Of a DNA stretch of 40,870 nucleotides, positions 11,865-40,401 are shown piece after piece (within the stretch, counting starts at the first letter, position 1; each line of letters starts with the position of its first letter). Both the position numbers and the translations under genes were made by a program. The notes under the pieces are model-generated. The model searched no databases and was not told the origin of the DNA. It saw only the letters and a list, made by a program, of their open reading frames with translations. The DNA comes from a virus (taxonomy: Duplodnaviria; Heunggongvirae; Uroviricota; Caudoviricetes), in the IMG/VR virus record IMGVR_UViG_2917413769_000003, positions 1 through 40,870 of that record. The stretch is one strand, 5' to 3'.

Positions 11865-12289
11865 AGCTGGCGACCGCCAGCGCCGAACATAGTAGCTATC
11901 TGGTAAAACTCTGCGCCGTAGCGAGTGTTGTTCCAGAAACCTGCATCAGGATTCAGCGTCATGCTGTTGTCATAGCTGACACTGACTTTATCAACAGATT
12001 TAGAGGACTGGACGCCACTGGCATTACCGCCAGAGCCACCGGCCGCCGCAGAACGCTGGTCCTGCGCAAACAACGTCATGTAATGAGCGACATAAAGCTC
12101 GACAATGTAGGGATACATAGTCGGGCCATAGAGGCTTTCATTTAGCATGACGTCGGCCAGATTCAGCCGAAACTGGATCTGAGCATCAGGATATTTGGTG
12201 GTATCAGCGAACTGCGGGAAGTCGGTGCGAAATTTACTTACGGTTGGCAGGTCCGGATTTTTCGGCATTTTTATCCCCTTCGCCGCCAA
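11861..12289 (-). CDS. Head-tail connector protein (DUF4054-like)
   Basis: 142 aa ORF downstream of capsid genes; start may be at internal Met (MPKNPDLP). Confidence 0.45.
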
Positions 12290-12593
12290 TAAGCGACGCC
12301 GCGAGCTGCGTATTCAGGTCTTCAATCTGCTTATTCAGAGCATCAATCGTGTCCTGATTCGCTTTAAGTTGCTCATCGCGCTGAGCGAGTGCATCTTTTA
12401 GCTTCTGCAGTTCGTCGCCATCGTCAGTATTCGAACGGTCCGCCAACTCTGCATGAGCCAGGGTAAACCAGTGCCCGGCATGCTCTTCTGGCACGTCATG
12501 GAGACCTTTGGTGTATTCGGTCGCCGTACCGTCTGCCAGCGTCAACTTGAAAGGGGTGTGAACGAGGATCGAAACCAGTTTTTCTTTTGCCAT
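12234..12593 (-). CDS. Hypothetical phage protein with C-terminal coiled coil
   Basis: 119 aa ORF immediately after major capsid gene; ...[36 protein letters not shown]... heptad-like. Confidence 0.4.
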
Positions 12594-23881: not shown

Positions 23882-24304
23882 TTATGCCGCTGGGCGGTTT
23901 CTGTGCAAAGTCCTAAGCATCTGAGGCTTTGACTGTACCGACTGATCCATTTCGAGAACCACGTCCAGCATCGCCAGGCAACCGTCGATAAATCCCTCTG
24001 CGGCCTGGAGCCTCTTCAGAACGTGGGTATGCGATACGCCGAGCTTCTCGCCCATCGCCCGTACTGGCATGGCCTGAACGTAATGCCACTCAAGCAGTGT
24101 GCACAGATACGGATCTTTTTTCTTCAGGCAGTTCATAGCGGAGCTGATGATCAGACCGTCGTTGTCGCTGCACTTAAGCCGTCCGGCTTGCGTTGTGGGT
24201 AGCAGATTCTTAAATCCTGCAGCTACAGGGGGAAAGTAAATACTACCGCCTTCACTCGCAGCCCAGCCACCCCATCGATCTAAAACCTGTTGAATATTAC
24301 GCAT
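23882..24304 (-). CDS. Late-gene antitermination protein Q (E. coli QuuD-like)
   Basis: N-terminus MRNIQQVLDRWGGWAAS...VAAGFKNL closely resembles QuuD MRDIQMVLERWGAWAA...IAAGFKGL as recalled; located upstream of lysis cassette. Confidence 0.8.
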   Translation of the reverse strand: MRNIQQVLDRWGGWAASEGGSIYFPPVAAGFKNLLPTTQAGRLKCSDNDGLIISSAMNCLKKKDPYLCTLLEWHYVQAMPVRAMGEKLGVSHTHVLKRLQAAEGFIDGCLAMLDVVLEMDQSVQSKPQMLRTLHRNRPAA

Positions 24305-24435: not shown

Positions 24436-24623
24436 GGAACCACCTGCCCCCACCTGGAACCACCTTTTTCTAACCTTTCCCCCAATCGACTTATATATAT
24501 ATATGGGGTTTCTAATAGAAAGGTGGTTCCAGTGGTTCCAGTAGTTCCGCACCGCTTGCCGCAAGGGCTGCGAGGTGGAACCACCTTCGCTTTTAGGTGG
24601 TTCCACGTGGTTCCAGCGGTTCC
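24436..24623. repeat. Iteron array (GGTGGTTCC / GGAACCACC, about 9 copies in both orientations) flanking a (TA)n tract; putative replication origin
   Basis: Copies at about 24436, 24456, 24522, 24532, 24574, 24596, 24607, 24615; TATATATATATAT at 24491..24504; directly 3' of the primase-helicase gene. Confidence 0.5.
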
Positions 24624-26779
24624 CAAACCTTGCATTTTTTCCCCTCAATTCGCCGTTGAGCACGCTTATAGCCGCAATTTTGCAAAACATTGCTAATTCG
24701 CATTTCTTCGCGTTTTCCGATGTGGCTGGGATTTAAACCAATCGCATCGCGCAGAACGTCGCTAGCGCGTAAAAATTCGCAATTTCGCGGAATGTCGTTA
24801 GTCATCAGGTCGGGTGTGTCGAGCCATTTCTCGACCGTTTCGAGCCACGCATCCTTAATGGTGTACTGCTCGTGGACACTCGCGCCGAGACGCTCAGCAT
24901 CGCGGAACTGGATGCCGCCGAGGCGCTTAAACGTCTCGCGAGCCTCCGCCCATAGCAAAAGGAGGTCGGTTTTTATCGCTTTCACGTCGACTTTCGACAC
25001 CTCCACGGGAAGCCAGCGACGGTTACCGGTCTTGTCTGCGAGGAATTCGTCCTCGTTGGTGGTGCCGACGAACACCAGGCGACGCGGGAACTGTGTAGCG
25101 AACTCACGATACTTAGGGATCCAGTTCTCATGTGTACGCGTCACGAATGCCTTAATGCTTTCCAGCTCTTTGGTATTGAGGCCGCGCAGCTCGCCAATCT
25201 CCGCCACCAGCCGCCCGCGCATCTTGCGTGCGAGATCGTCATCTTTCTCAGCGAAAGATATCTCGGTGAAGAATGCCGGGTCGGGGCTCAACGCCTCCAC
25301 GCCGGAGGATTTACCGCAGCCCTGAGGCCCGACGAGGATCGGCACCATATCGGCTTTGACGCCAGGCTCCAGCACCCTGCCCGCCAGCGCCGTCCACATG
25401 TACATGGACACCGCACGGGTGTATGCCGTGTCGGCAGTACCGAAGTGCGTGTGGTAGAAAGATTCGATACGCGGCACGCCGTCCCACTCCAGTCCGTTCA
25501 GCCAGGTTGTCGCGGAGTCGAAGGGCTGTTCGTCAGCGGCCAGCAGCACGACGTCGCGAATGAGCTCGCGCCCCACAGGTTTGAAGCCGCGCTTTTCCAT
25601 CGTGATGCGCAGGCGTGCATAGTCGGCATCGGTGAACGCCTGCCACTGGCCGGAGCCCGCAGAGGAAAACATGATTTCGTCGCGGAACTGGTCAAAGCGG
25701 ATATCGATGTCCACGAAGTCAGGGCGTACAACCGCTTTGGCTGCATTGCTGATGGTCGACTCGATGCGCCCCCATTTATCACGTTCGAACGCTGGCAGCG
25801 GTAACGGCTCGGCTACTTCGGTGCTGGTCAGGTCCTCGAAATCGTCGTTGCGGATCCCAATAGCATTAAGGAAATCGCCGTCGTCGCGGTGTGCGCAGCT
25901 GGCGTGCAGGCATTTGAAATGACCCTGCTCAAAGCCCGCGGTACCACCCGGGAAGTAAACCGTGCTCGTCGGGTCGCCGCCAGTACTGTGGCCGTCCTCG
26001 AACGGGCAGCGGATATAGCGCTCGCCGTTCGCACCATCCAGCAGCGTCCAGCCATTGGCGTCCAGATAATCCGCCGTCTCATCAGTAGCACCGGGCGTGA
26101 ACGTCGAACGGTCGCGCATCTTCGTACTACCCGCTTCTGTGGTGACCGACACAGGCAGCTGATCCGCCAGGCGCTGCCACAGCGTTTCGAGTTGGTCAGC
26201 AGTAATGACAGGCGGTTCATCCGGCAGATCACCGTCCCACTCAATCCGGGCGCCGCTGCTGTGTGTACCGCAGGCAACGAACTGCTGCCCATTGGCCAGC
26301 AGCTCAACGATGCCCAAATCGCCCGCCAGGCGGTGAATGCGTTTACGGAAATCGCCGTCGACAGCCAGCAGGTACAGGCATTTATTGCTGTTGGCACGCC
26401 AACGCCGCGGCGGCAGTTCGCCCAGCAACTGCACCAGCGTGTTGCGAATATCGGCCTGGATGTCTTCGTCTTCGCTGTCGCAGTCCAGCGCCAACCAGCC
26501 AAAGCCGGTGCGCACACAGATCCCGTAATCAGGCTCTCTGGACCAGCGGGCAAAGTCATGCTCAGTGACGACATGCTCGGTCCACTGAGCAATACCGGTA
26601 ACCAGGCGGTCACGGTTATAGCGGCTCGGCGTCTTGCCCAGCGCTTTCAGTTTACTGTCGGGGGAAATGGCCGCGCCCGGGTTGCACACGACCGGCAGCA
26701 GCTGGTCAGTACGACCCAGCACCAGATCGAAGTGGAACCATTCGTCAGGCGTCGCCCCCCAGTTCTTATTCTCTGGCAT
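24593..26779 (-). CDS. Bifunctional primase-polymerase (AEP) / SF3 helicase replication protein
   Basis: 728 aa; N-terminal AEP-like motifs (WLALDCD; ACGTHSSG) and C-terminal Walker A GPQGCGKSS; start 3 nt after cro stop. Confidence 0.75.
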   Translation of the reverse strand: MPENKNWGATPDEWFHFDLVLGRTDQLLPVVCNPGAAISPDSKLKALGKTPSRYNRDRLVTGIAQWTEHVVTEHDFARWSREPDYGICVRTGFGWLALDCDSEDEDIQADIRNTLVQLLGELPPRRWRANSNKCLYLLAVDGDFRKRIHRLAGDLGIVELLANGQQFVACGTHSSGARIEWDGDLPDEPPVITADQLETLWQRLADQLPVSVTTEAGSTKMRDRSTFTPGATDETADYLDANGWTLLDGANGERYIRCPFEDGHSTGGDPTSTVYFPGGTAGFEQGHFKCLHASCAHRDDGDFLNAIGIRNDDFEDLTSTEVAEPLPLPAFERDKWGRIESTISNAAKAVVRPDFVDIDIRFDQFRDEIMFSSAGSGQWQAFTDADYARLRITMEKRGFKPVGRELIRDVVLLAADEQPFDSATTWLNGLEWDGVPRIESFYHTHFGTADTAYTRAVSMYMWTALAGRVLEPGVKADMVPILVGPQGCGKSSGVEALSPDPAFFTEISFAEKDDDLARKMRGRLVAEIGELRGLNTKELESIKAFVTRTHENWIPKYREFATQFPRRLVFVGTTNEDEFLADKTGNRRWLPVEVSKVDVKAIKTDLLLLWAEARETFKRLGGIQFRDAERLGASVHEQYTIKDAWLETVEKWLDTPDLMTNDIPRNCEFLRASDVLRDAIGLNPSHIGKREEMRISNVLQNCGYKRAQRRIEGKKCKVWEPLEPRGTT

Positions 26780-26782
26780 GGG

Positions 26783-26983
26783 TTACGCCTTTTGTTTAGC
26801 CGTCTCTTCCTGAAAAAGCTTTTCTATCGCACGTACCGTAGAAAAGCGGGGGTCAGAGTGAACCCCGGTAAGAAGCCGACTAATAGAAGATTGCTTCACT
26901 CCTGCAATTTCGGCAATCTGGCTTTGGGTGTAGCCTGAGTCAATCAGGCTTTTGACCATTTCTTGGGGTGTTAGTCCGGACAT
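26783..26983 (-). CDS. Cro-like HTH (XRE family) regulator
   Basis: 66 aa, HTH (YTQSQIAEIAGVKQSSISRL), divergent from CI-like repressor; RBS GGAGA. Confidence 0.7.
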   Translation of the reverse strand: MSGLTPQEMVKSLIDSGYTQSQIAEIAGVKQSSISRLLTGVHSDPRFSTVRAIEKLFQEETAKQKA

Positions 26984-27124
26984 ATTTAAGTCTCCGCTTT
27001 TGTCTATAGAGCAAATCTATACGAAAACGGATTATTCAGCAATACAGCAATGTCATATCAATCTGGATTAAAATATCCGATAACGCATAATCACCGTCCC
27101 TGTCTTCTACATGGATGAATCCAA
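26984..27124. promoter_or_regulatory. Immunity switch region (divergent cI and cro promoters/operators)
   Basis: 141 bp AT-rich between divergent repressor genes; contains TCTATAGAGCAAATCTATA and CAGCAAT direct repeats. Confidence 0.5.
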
Positions 27125-27799
27125 ATGATTGATACCACCGATATCCTTTCTCAAAACATCAAGTACCTGATGGACAAAGCCAAGATAAGCTCGATAACCG
27201 AGCTAGCTCGTCGGTTACAACTGAATCAGCCAACATTACACAGGCTGGTATCTGGGGAAGTGAAAGACCCGAAATACGCAACGCTGAAGCAGATCGCCGA
27301 TTACTTCCGAGTGTCCCCGATTGACCTGGCGGAAAAGAGCCTTCAGGAGATGAGTAACGGAGGCGACGCCAATACAACAACCTACATATCTCTTCGATTT
27401 AATAAGGTGCCGGTCTTGGGAAATACTCAGCTTGGTGTTGGGGGACTTTGGAGCGACACTCCGTATTCGGTGGGCAGCAGCGATGGCTTCATCTACTGGC
27501 CGACAAAAGATGAAGATGCATATGCTCTGAAATGCGTTGGCGACTCAATGATGCCAAGAATTAAAGAGGGGGAATTCGTAATCGTCGAACCCAACCATGA
27601 CTACGCCCCGGGGGATGAAGTTCTTGTCGTTACGCAGGATGGTGAAGTTATGGTTAAAACTTTCCTGTTCGAGCGCGATGGTCTGTTTCACCTGATGTCC
27701 GTAAACGAAGACCACCCACCAATTAGGGTATCACGCGAAAACATCGAGAAAATCCATTACGTGGCTGGAATTGCTAAATCCGCCCTACGCATGTACTAG
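27125..27799 (+). CDS. CI-like repressor (HTH + S24 LexA-type peptidase domain)
   Basis: 224 aa; N-terminal HTH; C-terminal KCVGDSMMPRI (Ser nucleophile) and VMVKTF (Lys). Confidence 0.8.
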   Translation: MIDTTDILSQNIKYLMDKAKISSITELARRLQLNQPTLHRLVSGEVKDPKYATLKQIADYFRVSPIDLAEKSLQEMSNGGDANTTTYISLRFNKVPVLGNTQLGVGGLWSDTPYSVGSSDGFIYWPTKDEDAYALKCVGDSMMPRIKEGEFVIVEPNHDYAPGDEVLVVTQDGEVMVKTFLFERDGLFHLMSVNEDHPPIRVSRENIEKIHYVAGIAKSALRMY

Positions 27800-27829
27800 C
27801 GCCCACAGCACGACAATCCGTTTCTAACT

Positions 27830-27860
27830 AAACCGCTCAATACATGGGCGGTTTTCTTAT
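27830..27860 (+). terminator. Putative terminator downstream of cI
   Basis: AAACCGC - 11-nt loop - GCGGTTT followed by TCTTAT. Confidence 0.4.
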
Positions 27861-27883
27861 ACGCAAAATAATTCATTTTCGCA

Positions 27884-27912
27884 TTGACACAAAATCCCAT
27901 TACGCATATAAA
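27884..27912 (+). promoter_or_regulatory. Near-consensus sigma70 promoter (TTGACA - 17 nt - TATAAA) reading rightward
   Basis: -35 TTGACA at 27884..27889, 17-nt spacer, -10 TATAAA at 27907..27912. Confidence 0.55.
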
Positions 27913-28234
27913 TACGATATCGCATAAACAATGCGTTTTGTAATCGCTCTTTAACAAACTGAACCGCGTGACAGGCAAGCCGCTGTGCTCCTGGCAACAA
28001 AATAGCACCCGATGGGATCGAGGTAAGCGCCGAGTCCGTATGCGTACGGTAAGCGTAGAGGACCACACCGCGGCGAGCTGATAAGTCACGCAAGTTGAAA
28101 CGCCCCGACGATGGGGCGCTTAGTTCCCTTTGGGGTGCGGTGAATTGCAGTCCACCGAGACAAGCCGAAGCTCAGCATCGGCCACCGCACCACCAAAGTG
28201 AACTGACCAAGTGAAACTAACAGAGAGGTAAAAC

Positions 28235-28345
28235 ATGCGTTACATCAAAATCGACAAAGGTCCTAACCGTGCACAGCGTCGTAAATCACGTCACGACACG
28301 ACAGTATCAGTAACCGGGAGCAAAGACGCGCAGCACACCGGATGA
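28235..28345 (+). CDS. Small basic ORF (36 aa) with arginine-rich motif
   Basis: RBS GAGAGG; MRYIKIDKGPNRAQRRKSRHDTTVSVTGSKDAQHTG; below ORF-track size cut-off, found by manual translation. Confidence 0.3.
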   Translation: MRYIKIDKGPNRAQRRKSRHDTTVSVTGSKDAQHTG

Positions 28346-28468
28346 ACCGCCCAGAGCGGTTGGAGATGGTGAGCTCGGGCCATCTCAAACTGTGTAACTT
28401 CTTCAAAATCAGTTAACCCCAGCCGCATCCACCATCCCCTGAATCATCCATTGCTGTGTGTAGTCTTT

Positions 28469-28494
28469 GCCCGCCTCCCATGACGGGCTTTTTT
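28469..28494 (+). terminator. Rho-independent terminator
   Basis: GCCCG - 10-nt loop - CGGGC followed by TTTTTT. Confidence 0.5.
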
Positions 28495-28551
28495 ATGTCC
28501 GAAAACGCATTCAGCGCAGTGCGTTCCCCGACATGAAAAGGAGCACCTCCG

Positions 28552-28701
28552 ATGAAACCTGAACACCTCCACCGGCTGACGGGGCGCGACGTGCTCCGCT
28601 ATCGCCGCAACCACTTCGATTTAATTACCGGCCTGGCCCTCGCTACTGCGTGCGGTCTGGTTATTACCTTCATTCTCCTTGTAGCGAGGACCGCAGTATG
28701 A
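28552..28701 (+). CDS. Small membrane protein (49 aa, single TM)
   Basis: RBS AAAGGAG; [49 protein letters not shown]; stop overlaps next gene ATG (ATGA). Confidence 0.4.
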   Translation: MKPEHLHRLTGRDVLRYRRNHFDLITGLALATACGLVITFILLVARTAV

Positions 28702-29615
28702 GCTTAGAAACTAGTCTCGAACTTAACAACAAGCTGCTGACGCAGCACAACGCCCTGCTTGAACAGCTGATTACGGCACTGGCTTCAGGCCAGACAATTC
28801 AGCCGCAGACCCTCGTCACCCAGGTACAGGAATATCGCGAGACGGTACCGGACAAATCGGCCACTGATGACGAGCGGCCGGATCTGGAAACGCTGGAATT
28901 CAGCGACGTTATCGCGCTGGCATGTTTCTACCCTTTACCAGTTATGTACAGCTTCGAGATGTTCCAGCGCGCTATCGATTATCGCGATGCTGTTGGCGAC
29001 AAACGTGTGGTGCAGATCGACGCGCTGGACATGGCGCTCCAGGGTGTGAAACGCGCCAACCATCTGAGCAAGCCAGCACTGTTAGATCTGGCTCGCCACG
29101 TTATTCGCTTCTGGGATGATTTGCCGACTATTGAGTCCCGCCGCGACTTTGCCGAACGCCTGCTGGATGCGCCAGCTGCCGGACGCGACGAAGTAAAACC
29201 GAAGAAGGCCAGCGGCAAAGACAAACAGTCTGAGGAACGCACCGGGCCGTTTTACTGCAAAAGCGTAGACGGTAAGGCAGCCAGTGAGCTCCACACTTTA
29301 CGCAAACTGAATGCAATGCTGGAGAAAGGCCACGTTGAGATCAACCGGGTCGAGTACCTCCAACTGCAGGAAGAATTCGCACGTAAAGACGCAGTAAACA
29401 GCGGACAGGGTAAAGACGATGAAACGGATGATACTCCCGACTTTGCGGCACTGCGTAAACAGGCCGAAGGGCTGATTCTGCAGCTGGCGAAAGGTGGTTA
29501 CCGCGCCGAAGCCGTCGCCATTCTGGAAAAACATGGCGCCCAAAAACTTGGCGGTGTTGCTGACGAGGATCTCGCAGACGTGATCGCCCAGGCCGAAAAA
29601 GCGCTGGAGGGTTGA
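28698..29615 (+). CDS. Hypothetical phage early protein
   Basis: ORF track 28650..29615; start at ATG 28698 ([12 protein letters not shown]...) assumed. Confidence 0.5.
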
Positions 29616-29617
29616 GA

Positions 29618-30916
29618 ATGCCAGACGTTCACGCACGACTTTCCCCCTCTGCGGCGCATCGCTGGATGCGCTGCCCCGGTAGCCTGGCGCTGGAAGCCAC
29701 GCAGCCAGATAAAAGCAGCACCTTTGCGGAAGAAGGCACCGCAGCGCATGCACTCGCTGAAAAAGTGCTGCGCAACCGCCAAAGCCACCCCGAGCATTAT
29801 GCCGGGTGCAACGTCGCAATGTTCCTCGGCTCATATCCATTAAGCGAAAACCCGGATGACCAGTCCGGCCCGCAAGTGAACGAGGAAATGGTCGAGGCCG
29901 TTGGCCTTTATACCGACACGCTCTGGACGCTCGCTCAGGGCAACGAGCTGCTGGTCGAGCAGCGTGTCGACTTTTCCCACATCTTCGGCGTGCCTGATTC
30001 ATTCGGTACCGCCGATGGGGTAATCATCGCTGGCAACGAGCTGCAGATCCACGACCTCAAATACGGGAAGGGGGTTCGCGTCGACGCCGAGCAGAACGAA
30101 CAGTTGCAGCTGTACGCCCTGGGCGCGCTGGAGCAGTTCAGCATGCTGTATGACTTCGAGACGGTGCGCCTGTTCATCCACCAGCCGAGGCTTAACCACG
30201 TTTCAGAGTGGGCCCTGACGGTGGAAGAGCTCCAGGCGTTCGGCGAACGGGCGCAGGAAGCGGCGGCCAACGTGATCGTGATGTTCAACATTGCCGATTG
30301 CGAAGGCGTCGAAACGCTGCCGCTGGAAAACTTCACTCCAGGCGAAAAACAGTGTCGGTTCTGCAAGGCTAGTGCCATCTGCACCGCCCGGGAACAACTG
30401 CACATCAGTACCATCGCGGGGGATTTCGACGACATAACGCAGTCCGTTGGCGATCTGCTGGCTGACTCAATCGCGCGGGTACCGCTACTAACCGTTGAAC
30501 AGCTGGCAGAGGTATACAGCCAGGCGGACTTTATCGAATCCTGGCTAAAGGCCGTGCGCGACCGGGTGAACAGTGAGCTGAACGCCGGGCATCAGGTTCC
30601 GGGCTTTAAGCTGGTCACCGGCAAGCTGGGTAACCGCGCCTGGAGCAACGAAGCAGAAGCAGAAGAGCTGCTGAAATCCTTCAGGCTGAAACAGGAACAG
30701 ATGTACAGCATGAAAGTAATCAGCCCGACGCAGGCCGAGAAGTTGCTTAAGAAAGAAAGTCCGCGCCGCTGGACAAAAGCCGAAGCCCTGATCACCCGCG
30801 CTGACGGTAAACCCACCGTCGCCCCTGAATCTGACCCGCGCCCTGCGCTCAATATCAACCCTGTTAACGATTTCGACGACGTGTCCGACGACGCGCTCGC
30901 CGCAGACCTCATCTGA
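29618..30916 (+). CDS. PD-(D/E)XK family nuclease (DUF2800, Cas4/RecB-like) with C-terminal Cys cluster
   Basis: ORF track starts at TTG 29612; ATG 29618 with GGAGGG RBS; N-terminal [14 protein letters not shown] and [10 protein letters not shown] cluster. Confidence 0.65.
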
Positions 30917-36114: not shown

Positions 36115-36392
36115 CCTACGAGCGTGAAAGCACTATCGAAAAGCACCTCGTCGCCGAAGTGAAAAAGGCTGGCGGGCTGGCTTATAAATTCGTGTCGCCT
36201 GGCCGCCGCTCGGTACCAGATCGCATTGTGCTGTTACCCGGCGGCCGTCTCGTCTTTGTCGAATGCAAAGCACCTGGCAAACCACCACGCGCCGACCAGC
36301 TGCGCGAGCACGAACGGCTGCGCGCACTGGGCTTTTGCGTGGTGGTGCTGGATAGCAAAGACCTTTCGCAAGTGCTATCTCTAGCGCCCTAA
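36111..36392 (+). CDS. VRR-NUC domain nuclease
   Basis: 93 aa; PD-(D/E)XK core PDRIVLL...FVECKAPG; start overlaps previous stop. Confidence 0.7.
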   Translation: MTYERESTIEKHLVAEVKKAGGLAYKFVSPGRRSVPDRIVLLPGGRLVFVECKAPGKPPRADQLREHERLRALGFCVVVLDSKDLSQVLSLAP

Positions 36393-37307
36393 CTGAGGGT
36401 TGCGGAAGTTGTCAGCAATTCGCATCGCATCAGCTCTCCCGCCGGGCAGCATCCCCGCCTTCGTCAGGATGTATTTAGGGAACTTGGTGGGCAAATACTC
36501 ATGACGGAACCAACGACGAAATTCTGGCAACGCTTCGTTGGGATAAGCGTTAATCATCTGAGGATTCGAAGTAGATTGATTAAAGTCATCCGGATAGTGA
36601 TGCGCACATTGAACGCGATCACCGAACTGACGTGAGAGGCCGTTTGACGTCCAGTGACGCCCCCAGCATGAACCGACGCTGATATCAGGCACGGTATACA
36701 TATTCACCGCAAGACCAGCGGTAATCAGGTCAACCATTAAACCCGCAATTTCGTTAAAAATGATAAAGTGGCCGTCGGGTACCGTGCCGGTACTTTGGAT
36801 AATGGAAACCCGCTGATGATAAGGCCCCCAAGGGTCTTCTGGCTGGTATCGCAACGCGCCATAAATATAATCCCGAAGCCCGACTCGGGCTAATTCGCGA
36901 TAGTATTGTTGCGCGGTTGAATTTGATGCTGCTTGCGATTCAAAAGCATAAAACTCGAGCAGAGCCATACACACAATATCAGGGAATGCGTAATGTACAG
37001 AGCCTGCACGCATAACCGAGATAAATAGCACAGGGTCTGTATAACCGGCTTGCTGAAGATATGTGCTAATAAACTCCATTCGCCCACGAGTAAAAACCCC
37101 GCTCTGGAAGCACTGAGCGTATTCGTTTGCGATGTCTGCAATGTTTGTGCGGTTGACGCCGCAGATTCTTGCGAGTCCGTTCTGAGTAAGGTACGGAATA
37201 CCGTTCTCCAAAACACCCATTTCAATATCGTTGAAAACACCTTCCTGCCTAACTCCAAGATCTAATACAGCAGGGGGTGTGGGCTGAGGCTGATTCTGTG
37301 TAGTCAT
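36381..37307 (-). CDS. Hypothetical protein, opposite-strand low-GC insert (moron-like)
   Basis: 308 aa on the minus strand inside a plus-strand operon; visibly lower GC than flanks; 3' end overlaps VRR-NUC 3' end by 12 nt. Confidence 0.5.
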   Translation of the reverse strand: MTTQNQPQPTPPAVLDLGVRQEGVFNDIEMGVLENGIPYLTQNGLARICGVNRTNIADIANEYAQCFQSGVFTRGRMEFISTYLQQAGYTDPVLFISVMRAGSVHYAFPDIVCMALLEFYAFESQAASNSTAQQYYRELARVGLRDYIYGALRYQPEDPWGPYHQRVSIIQSTGTVPDGHFIIFNEIAGLMVDLITAGLAVNMYTVPDISVGSCWGRHWTSNGLSRQFGDRVQCAHHYPDDFNQSTSNPQMINAYPNEALPEFRRWFRHEYLPTKFPKYILTKAGMLPGGRADAMRIADNFRNPQLGR

Positions 37308-38804: not shown

Positions 38805-39001
38805 GCGAGCAACCCGACGATCTGCTCACCCCGGACGAGGTATGCCAGAAGCTGGGCATAACCCAGAAGACGTTATGCGACTGGAATATAAAGCACCGGC
38901 ATCGCGCCGTACTGGCCCCCATCCGTTTCAGCGCGAAAGTGGTTCGCTATGAGCGCCGTAACGTCGACGCCTTCATCCAGAAATGCCGCAGCCAGTATTA
39001 A
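38801..39001 (+). CDS. Excisionase / AlpA-like DNA-binding protein
   Basis: 66 aa in-frame part of ORF 38603..39001; ATG 38801 overlaps SNF2 stop; LLTPDEVCQKLGITQKTLCDW HTH; adjacent to integrase. Confidence 0.55.
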   Translation: MSEQPDDLLTPDEVCQKLGITQKTLCDWNIKHRHRAVLAPIRFSAKVVRYERRNVDAFIQKCRSQY

Positions 39002-40401
39002 CCCCGTCGCCGTAACAGCGCAGCCTGCGCGAGTATGCTCCGTTCGTGAGCCTCGAAGGCTTCGCGCTTCAACGCAATCTCTTCCTGCAAAATCTCGTCT
39101 GAAAAGTCGTAATGTTCTGCCATTGGGTCATCTGACTTGCTGGAGTGATGAAGGCACAGGAGGCTTATTTCCCTTCGATCTGATCGGGAATAACCTCTTT
39201 CCTTCATCAGGGCGATAACGTTGCTCTTAAGGAATTTACGGCACATCGTATTAAATGCCCCCTCTTTCCCTTTAATAGTCCCGTCATGCTTCATGCCTTT
39301 AACAGCGCCTTCCGGGCTATAGGTTTTCACCAGTTTATCCAGCGATCTTTTTGAAAATGGCTGCATTGGGTCACGCGGCTGCAGGAATACAAAATCGTTA
39401 TTGCACTCAGGAACTGAATCACGCCAGGCTTTCTGCTCGTCGATAATCCGCTGGATCTCTGGCGTTATTGGCAAGCGGAAAGCCTTTTGTGTTTTCATGG
39501 CCCCGCGCATACCGATAACTCCTTCCGGATAAACAATTTCGCCAGCATCTTCATTAATGTAATCCCAACGCAGGTTATGAACGTTAATCGGTCGAACGCC
39601 GGTAATAATCATATAGCGAACGGCGTTTTTCTGCTGTATTGAGGTACAGGCGGCCACGTTGAGCCAGAGCCGGGCGATGGATTCAATATCGGTAAAAAGT
39701 CGTGTCGGGGTGGGTTTCTGTACGCGGGAGGAAACATAATCGTCGGGCAGGCTGGCGGCAATGTTGCGGCCATTGCAAAGAGTGGGAGAGCAAAACTTCC
39801 AGAACCGACGAAGCTCGGCAAACAACTCCAGGGCGTTATTGTTCGAGCGAGTGGCGATCCATTCGTCCAGCACTTCCACCAGCCGAGGGTATGTCACGTC
39901 GCTGAACACTTCGCGCTCGCCGAACGTTGCTTTAATCCGGTCGATACGCACCCCGTAGGTGGTGAAACTGTCCGGGCTCAGCTTCTGCCGGGCCACTTTG
40001 GCTTTAAGGTCATCCCGGTACATTTCCAGCGCAGCATGGACGGACTCGGCTCGCAGGCCACCTTCGGCCATACCTGACGCCTTCTCGCGCGCCAGCTGAA
40101 TTGCGAGCTCCGGCCATTCGCCGAGCTTTTTACCTTTGAGCCCCATCTTTTTGGGAAACTCGGCGTAAAATGTAACCTTACCTGCTTTGCTGAAATCGAT
40201 GCGGAGATAGTTCTCTTTTTCGTATTTGGAACGGCGAGCCACGCCGGAAGCAGCGAGGATGGTTTTGGCGGCAGCAACACAGATTTTCATGTGTGCGCTG
40301 GTATAGGGAGGTTTACAGGCGTCCCACTTTTCAGACGCGGCTAAAACATCGTCATTATTGGGGCTATCCGGTTTATGTGTTACAGTGCGCGGCATTCTCA
40401 A
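38998..40401 (-). CDS. Tyrosine integrase
   Basis: 467 aa; C-terminal catalytic region with TGVRP (box I Arg) and LLCLHHSS...EHY (His/Tyr); at prophage end next to host gene. Confidence 0.8.
   Translation of the reverse strand: MRMPRTVTHKPDSPNNDDVLAASEKWDACKPPYTSAHMKICVAAAKTILAASGVARRSKYEKENYLRIDFSKAGKVTFYAEFPKKMGLKGKKLGEWPELAIQLAREKASGMAEGGLRAESVHAALEMYRDDLKAKVARQKLSPDSFTTYGVRIDRIKATFGEREVFSDVTYPRLVEVLDEWIATRSNNNALELFAELRRFWKFCSPTLCNGRNIAASLPDDYVSSRVQKPTPTRLFTDIESIARLWLNVAACTSIQQKNAVRYMIITGVRPINVHNLRWDYINEDAGEIVYPEGVIGMRGAMKTQKAFRLPITPEIQRIIDEQKAWRDSVPECNNDFVFLQPRDPMQPFSKRSLDKLVKTYSPEGAVKGMKHDGTIKGKEGAFNTMCRKFLKSNVIALMKERGYSRSDRREISLLCLHHSSKSDDPMAEHYDFSDEILQEEIALKREAFEAHERSILAQAALLRRRG

Follow-up and report, generated by a model that had tools for sequence, protein, structure and literature searches.

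The host small RNA (sRNA) RprA, an Hfq-dependent regulator of Enterobacterales, occurs, beside its full-length form, as a processed species described as RprA60-105 or as a 47-nucleotide (nt) form, which keeps regulatory activity (PMC3465796; PMC9262595). Its anti-site Ib pairs with CAGC (−90 to −87) of csgD, as proven by compensatory mutations (Mika et al. 2012, PMC3465796), and also contributes to the repression of ydaM/dgcM (PMC3465796). In Stx phage, the Hfq-dependent sRNA StxS is the by-product of a terminator that gates a phage operon (PMC7547250), and in CRISPR arrays boxA together with Nus factors, without N, protects long untranslated RNA from Rho (PMC7665894). In this study, we analyzed the 40,870-nt virus record IMGVR_UViG_2917413769_000003 of IMG/VR (the window, that is, the whole stretch of DNA at its full length), and within it the region from 27884 to 28494. 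This region forms the PL-type, early-left control unit of a temperate Escherichia phage with lambdoid regulatory logic, present as a prophage in Escherichia sp. E1130, and the terminator module at its end, judged by its sequence, reproduces almost exactly the 3′ part of RprA that processing releases and that binds the targets. The same copy is found in a large number of enterobacterial phages, relatives as well as unrelated ones, and this points to phages borrowing a regulatory RNA of their host. We found no description of phage RprA-like modules in the searchable open-access literature, and, as listed in that search, a 2025 review of phage-derived sRNAs (PMC12197685) has no mention of RprA.

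The module consists of two overlapping features:

28450–28471, plus strand: seed, ATTGCTGTGTGTAGTCTTTGCC, corresponding to RprA nt 60 to 81 and including GCUG, anti-site Ib for csgD.
28469–28494, plus strand: intrinsic terminator in the position of lambda tL1; together with the seed, an RprA60-105-like module (28450–28494).

Compared to rprA of K-12, the seed is identical at 22 of 22 positions, a short CCCCUGA motif upstream is also common to both, and in the terminator the loop CUCCCAYGA is retained, the stem having one compensatory and one mismatched position. An intrinsic terminator had already been marked here in a first-pass annotation made from the sequence letters, and we find it in place, as a hairpin GCCCGCC...GACGGGC (28469–28488) followed by six T (28489–28494). 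Both elements of the RprA 3′ domain, the seed of nt 60 to 81 and the Rho-independent terminator, are thus present; the conserved stretch opens with A60, the nucleotide at which the reported RprA60-105/47-nt species starts, and the phage module folds like RprA60-105. A relaxed Rfam scan returned RprA at 28395–28498 (56.4 bits, E = 2.4e−6) as the only credible match, the mir-like and rox1 matches merely reflecting hairpins; for the whole leader, no Rfam family reached its gathering threshold in the window. The duplex predicted for the phage seed with the csgD 5′ untranslated region has 15 base pairs at −25 kcal/mol, the same as for RprA, and covers the CAGC/GCUG pairing. The likeness does not extend to the rpoS-pairing part of RprA (CCCCUG...AACGAAUU), of which only CCCCUGA is present and AACGAAUU is missing; in predictions with the rpoS leader the best site for the phage seed lies off the RprA site, and activation of rpoS is not predicted. 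A duplex scan of both strands of the window for a phage-internal target of the seed gave only the trivial antisense site, other duplex sites in the window, at −25 kcal/mol, falling within the tail of 8,162 windows. Nor is the module a free-standing rprA gene with its own Rcs/Cpx promoter between ydiK and ydiL: the copy lies inside the prophage leader, 530 nt downstream of the phage promoter, and no promoter-like site was found upstream of it.

At least 119 IMG/VR contigs contain the exact seed, and the matches listed form 33 upstream-context groups. Because this search fixes the seed, we drew a second sample through the DUF2800 protein of the early operon, comprising 80 viral contigs anchored on that protein at 77 to 88% amino-acid identity. 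The seed lies just upstream of the operon in 73 of the 80—56 times exact, 16 times with one change and once with a short GT-repeat expansion (scored as four mismatches)—and most of the 7 contigs without it extend only a little, or not at all, upstream of the anchor gene. Mean pairwise identity in this sample is 0.975 for the seed, 0.40 for the 22 nt upstream, 0.73 for the hairpin and 0.58 for the 22 nt downstream. The module also ends the leader 3′ of cI-like repressors in unrelated phages, namely Escherichia phages Eeyore (class A), Flotzy and LLS, and it likewise ends the leaders of lambdoid groups B, C and E, so that it is found in at least five unrelated early-leader contexts. On the host side, 5,614 matches are spread over 5,424 complete Escherichia coli genomes, which makes about 190 extra copies, 27 of them on plasmids. 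The strains with an extra copy include enterotoxigenic E. coli H10407, IAI1 and O103:H2 12009, and among the matches listed none of the extra copies is annotated. A seed scan of GTDB species representatives returned mostly genuine chromosomal rprA of distant genera. In these genes (loci L235–L354), the 22-nt seed is identical in Xenorhabdus, Proteus, Morganella, Providencia, Rahnella, Serratia, Yersinia, Edwardsiella and Arsenophonus, and the 5′ two-thirds cannot be aligned between genera. Since the seed is invariant across many host genera of the Enterobacterales, the phages copy the most conserved part of the host RNA.

This conservation pattern bears on an alternative in which the module is a terminator only, a tL1 equivalent captured from host rprA whose sole effect is to attenuate the replication operon in cis. 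Such a terminator would sit where the module always sits, directly 5′ of the first early-operon gene; relatives without the module have another intrinsic terminator there, and the stem covaries at one position (GC in 9, AU in 8 and CG in 5 sequences, among 23 variants), as expected of a hairpin that must form. Yet a terminator needs no specific 22-nt single strand, and here the single strand (97.5%) is better conserved than the hairpin (73%) and the flanks (40 to 58%), recurs in the five or more unrelated contexts named above, and starts exactly at the RprA processing site. We consider this explanation unlikely, but one to be taken seriously.

Upstream of the module, the leader is built from the following features:

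27825–27859, plus strand: terminator-like hairpin after cI (AAACCGC...GCGGTTT, then TTCTTA), an inverted repeat.
27860–27930: operator-like repeats (TACGCA/ATCGCATAA type) covering the −35 element, spacer, −10 element and start site.
27884–27912, plus strand: sigma-70 promoter in the position of lambda PL, with a predicted start near A27919.
27946–27957, plus strand: boxA, GCTCTTTAACAA, about 27 nt after the predicted start and the single exact match in the window.
27945–28122, plus strand: conserved non-coding leader core of about 175 nt.
28101–28118, plus strand: G+C-rich hairpin CGCCCC-GAYGAU-GGGGCG in the boxB place of Salmonella phage epsilon34, no demonstrated boxB.
28123–28203, plus strand: long branched hairpin, homologue of the leader hairpin just 5′ of the N-like gene of epsilon34.
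28207–28425, plus strand: strain-specific filler or cargo, including a 36-amino-acid, Arg-rich open reading frame (ORF) at 28235–28345.

The order cI, terminator, promoter, leader, terminator and delayed-early genes is that of lambda PL, and also that of the annotated OL/PL-N region of epsilon34. The near-consensus sigma-70 promoter of the first-pass annotation (TTGACA at 27884–27889, a 17-nt spacer and TATAAA at 27907–27912) has correct coordinates and is the sole match to TTGACA-N17-TATAAT with at most one mismatch on both strands of the 40.9 kb, where shuffles expect 0.06; it is kept in relatives of the same immunity type. A simple promoter/terminator scanner missed both this promoter (A at position 6 of the −10 element) and the terminator (C·A mismatch in the stem), but because it works with fixed rules these misses do not count against either. 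Two 19-nt repeats overlap the promoter, at 27894–27912 (spacer and −10) and at 27912–27930 (start site), and a third copy lies at 27075–27093 in the cI/cro intergenic region; other immunity types have wholly different promoters, with palindromes of their own, at the equivalent position. Repeats shared with cI/cro and promoters and palindromes specific to the immunity type form the pattern of operator-controlled early promoters. The first 15 nt of the predicted transcript (27921–27935, plus strand) fold into a small hairpin with UUUUGU after it, a combination that the scanner reported as terminator-like; as the hairpin coincides with an operator-like palindrome in the DNA, it may be simply the operator. 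The hairpin at 27825–27859 sits between the cI transcript and the early promoter, with equivalents at the same place in the related loci L135, L140 and L142. The region had further been called rich in stem-loops and free of long ORFs, and both descriptions hold: the 580-nt leader is more structured than its shuffles (z = −3.9), and so are the 141 nt from 28095 to 28235 (−58.7 kcal/mol compared to −37.1 ± 3.7 in shuffles, z = −5.8), and its plus-strand ORFs have at most 39 amino acids, none of them conserved.

The boxA is identical at 12 of 12 positions to that of the E. coli rrnH leader; that of lambda is a weaker form, whereas the one here matches the rrn consensus in full. When 33 distinct relatives are aligned, their similarity starts abruptly at boxA and exceeds 95% identity over about 175 nt, up to the hairpin at 28101–28118, so that five immunity types with distinct promoters and palindromes upstream and differing cargo downstream have a common sequence from boxA on. 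The core matches 47 loci at 88 to 157 bits, with a mean column identity of 91% across 24 representatives, and an exact 40-mer of it has 0 matches in GTDB searched with one genome per species. Natural indels of 2, 26 and 50 nt among relatives exclude coding on either strand of the core; together with the absence of any conserved ORF, they rule out a coding or decayed-gene explanation. In L135 and L142, which are more distant relatives, boxA is retained but the leader is another one, which again ends in a terminator before the operon. The early transcript, long and untranslated, has a consensus boxA close to its 5′ end and then runs for about 600 nt with no conserved ORF. Because the leader lacks a conserved ORF for about 630 nt, protection against Rho is the most economical role for boxA.

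The strength of this conservation also invites an explanation in which boxA and the core form a cis-acting processive antitermination RNA, like HK022 put or EAR, that would let the polymerase withstand the downstream terminator, and the RprA-like part is incidental. As in HK022, there is no N; the core is extremely conserved, non-coding and strongly structured, it starts at boxA, and the operon needs read-through because no downstream promoter was found. But the core does not resemble the immunity/put region of HK022, where a blastn search of 26000–30100 at word size 7 gave only chance matches and no seed-like or boxA-like site; it matches no Rfam family, and any fold of it has only one or two compensatory changes. 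Its closing stem (GCGTGAC at 27966–27972 with GTCACGC at 28085–28091) shows one such change, in L085, seen by eye, and the consensus fold 1 in 39 pairs, the sequences being too similar to decide the fold. Variants with deletions of 26 and 50 nt exist (L118 and L098), and about a third of the relatives have the module without the core. We therefore think a put-like RNA improbable here.

The two hairpins downstream of the core were both drawn correctly in the first-pass annotation, the short one as CGCCCC/GACGAT/GGGGCG at 28101–28118 and the long one through the complementarity of GGTGCGGTG (28134–28142) and CACCGCACC (28183–28191). The long hairpin has 84% identity (blastn) to epsilon34, g341c, SPN9CC and other P22-like phages. 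Its counterpart in epsilon34, which folds identically, lies between PL and the N-like gene gp43, directly after a boxB-type hairpin with a GAAAA loop. Across 11 variants from four phage groups, 9 of its 26 pairs show compensatory changes, so we regard it as a real, conserved RNA structure; the proposed check of stem conservation and covariance across homologues came out in favor of this hairpin, and the decayed gene remnant that had been named as the alternative is not supported. In position, its counterpart in lambda is the N-leader hairpin, an RNase III site, and the long hairpin may likewise be a site for RNase III or other processing. The short hairpin shows little informative variation (its third loop base is C or T among relatives, and its stem tolerates U·G); downstream of boxA it is the nearest clean hairpin, at a distance of 143 nt, and its loop has 6 nt.

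An N-type nut site, in which boxA would act with the hairpin at 28101–28118 as boxB and with the 36-amino-acid ORF or an unrecognized protein as antiterminator, would make use of a perfect boxA and of a small hairpin placed just before the long one, like the GAAAA-loop boxB of epsilon34. The ORF, preceded by a good Shine-Dalgarno sequence, contains the motif NRAQRRKSRH and takes the position of N in epsilon34. The geometry is wrong for a nut site, however: known nut sites have roughly 8 to 10 nt between boxA and the boxB hairpin, compared to 143 nt here, the loop has 6 nt, and no GNRA-like pentaloop of the lambda boxB type lies a few nucleotides 3′ of boxA. The ORF is a singleton, a cluster of one protein on 2 contigs with neither a tblastn nor a PHROG match; the segment 28207–28425 that carries it has no counterpart in about 230 related loci, most of which replace it with other cargo or with nothing. 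We rejected the ORF as N on these grounds, and no N-like family was found among the neighboring proteins, where the only antiterminator is the Q-like protein at 23882–24304; boxA thus has no cognate N here, in agreement with the first-pass annotation, which had recognized no N gene. A nut site of this kind is therefore highly improbable. Of the promoter/nut/terminator unit that this annotation had envisaged, the early promoter, the structured leader, the terminator and also a boxA stand, and a classical N/nut system is not supported, the large hairpin being a homologue of the epsilon34 nutL-N leader hairpin rather than a boxB. Its wider reading as a nut, leader or sRNA-type region was sound in general, and it overlooked the most informative pair of features, boxA and the RprA identity of the terminator module.

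The slot between the leader hairpins and the RprA-like module holds variable cargo, from 65 nt to about 760 nt among relatives. Some have nothing in it (about 65 nt), L140 has three small plus-strand ORFs (4949–5575), and L001, like many E. coli prophages, has a 173-amino-acid ORF on the minus strand (3397–3921; PHROG 1244, function unknown).

From the sequence identity, the conservation pattern, the covariation and the layout, we infer a course of events that extends from transcription and its dependence on Nus factors, through the efficiency of termination and the processing of the RNA, to Hfq binding and the regulation of targets. In the lysogen, cI would repress the promoter. Upon induction or infection, boxA would recruit NusB/NusE and other Nus factors, and the polymerase could cross about 630 nt of untranslated RNA without Rho-dependent termination. 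The intrinsic terminator (at 28494) would then stop part of the transcripts and so gate the replication operon from 28552, a role that we assign to it because the scanner found no promoter downstream; the remainder might pass owing to a leaky terminator, a put-like action of the core or a further factor. RNase E would then cut the terminated RNA at the AUU in the seed, and RNase III might cut it at the long hairpin as well, so that an Hfq-type sRNA of about 45 to 50 nt resembling RprA60-105 would be left. This sRNA is predicted to pair with the host mRNAs of processed RprA, at csgD site I and in dgcM/ydaM, which would couple phage early transcription to repression of the curli/biofilm regulon. 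We see the chances as evenly balanced that the locus as a whole is a PL-type leader with boxA acting against Rho and a terminator that both gates the replication operon and releases an RprA-like sRNA. That the processed RprA 3′ domain is also a mobile phage module, a mimic released on derepression to take over the csgD/dgcM regulon while its hairpin gates the replication genes, seems to us to fall just short of an even chance.

Several observations weigh against the release of an RprA-like sRNA from a boxA-protected leader. With 56.4 bits, the module stays below the gathering score of RprA (RF00034), which is 70 bits, and none of 13 other phage loci reaches that score (class A, 41.2 bits). Two positions ahead of the putative RNase E site stands a C and not a purine, and the terminator stem has a C·A mismatch and only six U, which bears on the efficiency of both termination and Hfq binding. 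The rrn-type boxA complex is established as acting against Rho, not against intrinsic terminators. The core has few compensatory changes, which leaves a role as RNA structure unproven and a role at the DNA level possible. Some relatives (L135, L142 and L144–L150) have no module, so it is not essential to this phage type. Finally, the high identity of the seed could come in part from repeated recent capture from host rprA, or from gene conversion with it. It is, on the other hand, scarcely credible that the RprA-like sequence is an attachment-site remnant or recombination scar of phages that integrate into rprA, for although integration at the 3′ end of a small RNA gene, with a copy of this end on the phage, is common among phages, the integrase gene (38998–40401) is 10.5 kb away, the module is internal to the prophage at a fixed place before the replication operon in 73 relatives, and nearly all E. 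coli genomes have a single, intact rprA, the additional, unannotated copies lying elsewhere.

The genes and remaining features around the leader are as follows:

Minus strand of the window: genes for tail, head, lysis, a Q-like antiterminator, primase and a Cro-like helix-turn-helix protein.
24593–26779, minus strand: VapE/Prim-Pol primase.
26783–26983, minus strand: Cro-like helix-turn-helix gene.
27125–27799, plus strand: cI, of the LexA/S24 type.
28495–28534, plus strand: hairpin AUGUCCGAAAACGCA...UGCGUUCCCCGACAU (−17.6 kcal/mol, z = −2.4) between the terminator and the ribosome-binding site of the 49-amino-acid ORF.
ATG at 28552, plus strand: the 49-amino-acid ORF, first gene of the early operon.
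3′ of the leader, plus strand: early operon with the 49-amino-acid membrane peptide, a 305-amino-acid protein, a DUF2800 nuclease, an Enc34-type single-stranded DNA-binding protein, an SPFH protein, PolA and a PAPS-reductase-like protein.
Beyond the early operon: BstA homologue, SNF2 helicase and integrase (38998–40401).

The Q-like antiterminator (23882–24304, minus strand; PHROG 79, E = 3e−36) lies 3′ of the primase and 5′ of the lysis genes, and its presence points to lambdoid late control in a phage without N. Between the early operon and the integrase, a 307-amino-acid ORF (36381–37307, minus strand) belongs to PHROG 6287, "BstA abortive infection system, replication inhibitor" (E = 6e−105), a prophage-borne anti-phage defense gene. 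No tRNA or tmRNA was found. After the module, CTGAAAGCGCA...TGCGCT is kept in this phage family, and the stem at 28495–28534 differs by subgroup (AACGCA/TGCGTT or AGCGCA/TGCGCT) yet stays paired.

Other loci that carry the module show peculiarities of their own. In L009 and L097, which belong to one lambdoid group, a tRNA T-arm-like motif, GGTTCGATTCCGG, stands directly upstream of the seed; it could be a tRNA-like RNase P/RNase Z processing signal that sets the 5′ end of the sRNA. The leaders of L009, L014, L015, L040, L056 and L063 share CGGGTCGCCG(C/A)CAGTACGATGACATGCGGGAAAGACCGC downstream of cI-like repressors, a candidate for a second conserved leader RNA unrelated to the core of the window. 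Among named phages, the class B leader was found only in the records labelled Stenotrophomonas phage BUCT708 and BUCT709, where the module is absent and the match covers part of the leader, not the CGGGTCGCCG(C/A)CAGTACGATGACATGCGGGAAAGACCGC element. In L014, which also has a class B RprA-like module, sRNA-Xcc1 matches above its Rfam gathering score at 12230–12318 (plus strand, 68.3 bits). L090 has two class A-type modules on opposite strands, one of them within 10 nt of the contig end, which may be an assembly artifact or a terminal inverted duplication. An example of a plasmid-borne copy is NZ_CP139658.2 (304 kb, 86.7% identity), and the plasmid copies may be phage-plasmids.

Should the module prove to be produced and to act, it would clearly exemplify how a phage takes over the functional core of an sRNA conserved in its host and puts it under the lysis-lysogeny switch, and prophage induction would be linked to the RprA regulon, that is, to curli/biofilm, cyclic di-GMP signaling and possibly conjugation control. 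About 3% of complete E. coli genomes would then carry a second, unannotated RprA-like locus, and RprA phenotypes would be confounded by that copy in strains with such prophages. The 175-nt ultra-conserved core is a candidate for a new cis-regulatory RNA, and a perfect rrn boxA heading an early operon without N offers a natural system for Nus-factor complexes that meet an intrinsic terminator.

Set beside the known systems, the layout is a variant of lambda PL without N, and the module is a partial RprA homologue that fails Rfam membership. It shares with RprA (RF00034) and RprA60-105 nt 60 to 81, the loop motif, the predicted fold, CCCCUGA and the predicted duplex with csgD site I; it differs in having no RprA 5′ hairpin, no AACGAAUU and no promoter of its own, in lying outside the ydiK-ydiL locus, and in being the 3′ end of an early leader instead of a free-standing gene. 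With lambda PL-nutL-N-tL1 and epsilon34 PL/OL-N, the leader has in common its position after cI, an operator-overlapped promoter, boxA near the 5′ end, a first terminator that precedes the delayed-early genes and, for epsilon34, a homologous long hairpin. Unlike both, it has no N gene, no canonical boxB beside boxA and about 630 nt of untranslated leader. HK022 put likewise belongs to a phage without N and is a structured RNA just downstream of an early promoter, but put acts without Nus factors and a boxA is present here. The consensus boxA close to the start of a long untranslated transcript is a feature of the rrn and CRISPR boxA-Nus systems (PMC7665894), whereas here it heads the early operon of a phage and has an intrinsic terminator downstream, a type of terminator that those systems are not known to overcome efficiently. 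DicF of the Qin prophage and StxS, both small RNAs of the Hfq type, have their 3′ ends at an intrinsic terminator within a regulatory transcript of a phage, and action on host mRNAs is known or predicted for them, as it is predicted for the module, whose putative RNA would also come from a repressor-controlled prophage operon and end at an intrinsic terminator. The module has no sequence similarity to DicF, and no Rfam match to it even at E values up to 10; it differs from both RNAs in copying a core-genome sRNA instead of a phage-specific sequence, and in standing in an early-left leader and not after PR′. In function, the predicted RNA most resembles DicF and StxS, prophage sRNAs that derive from regulatory transcripts.

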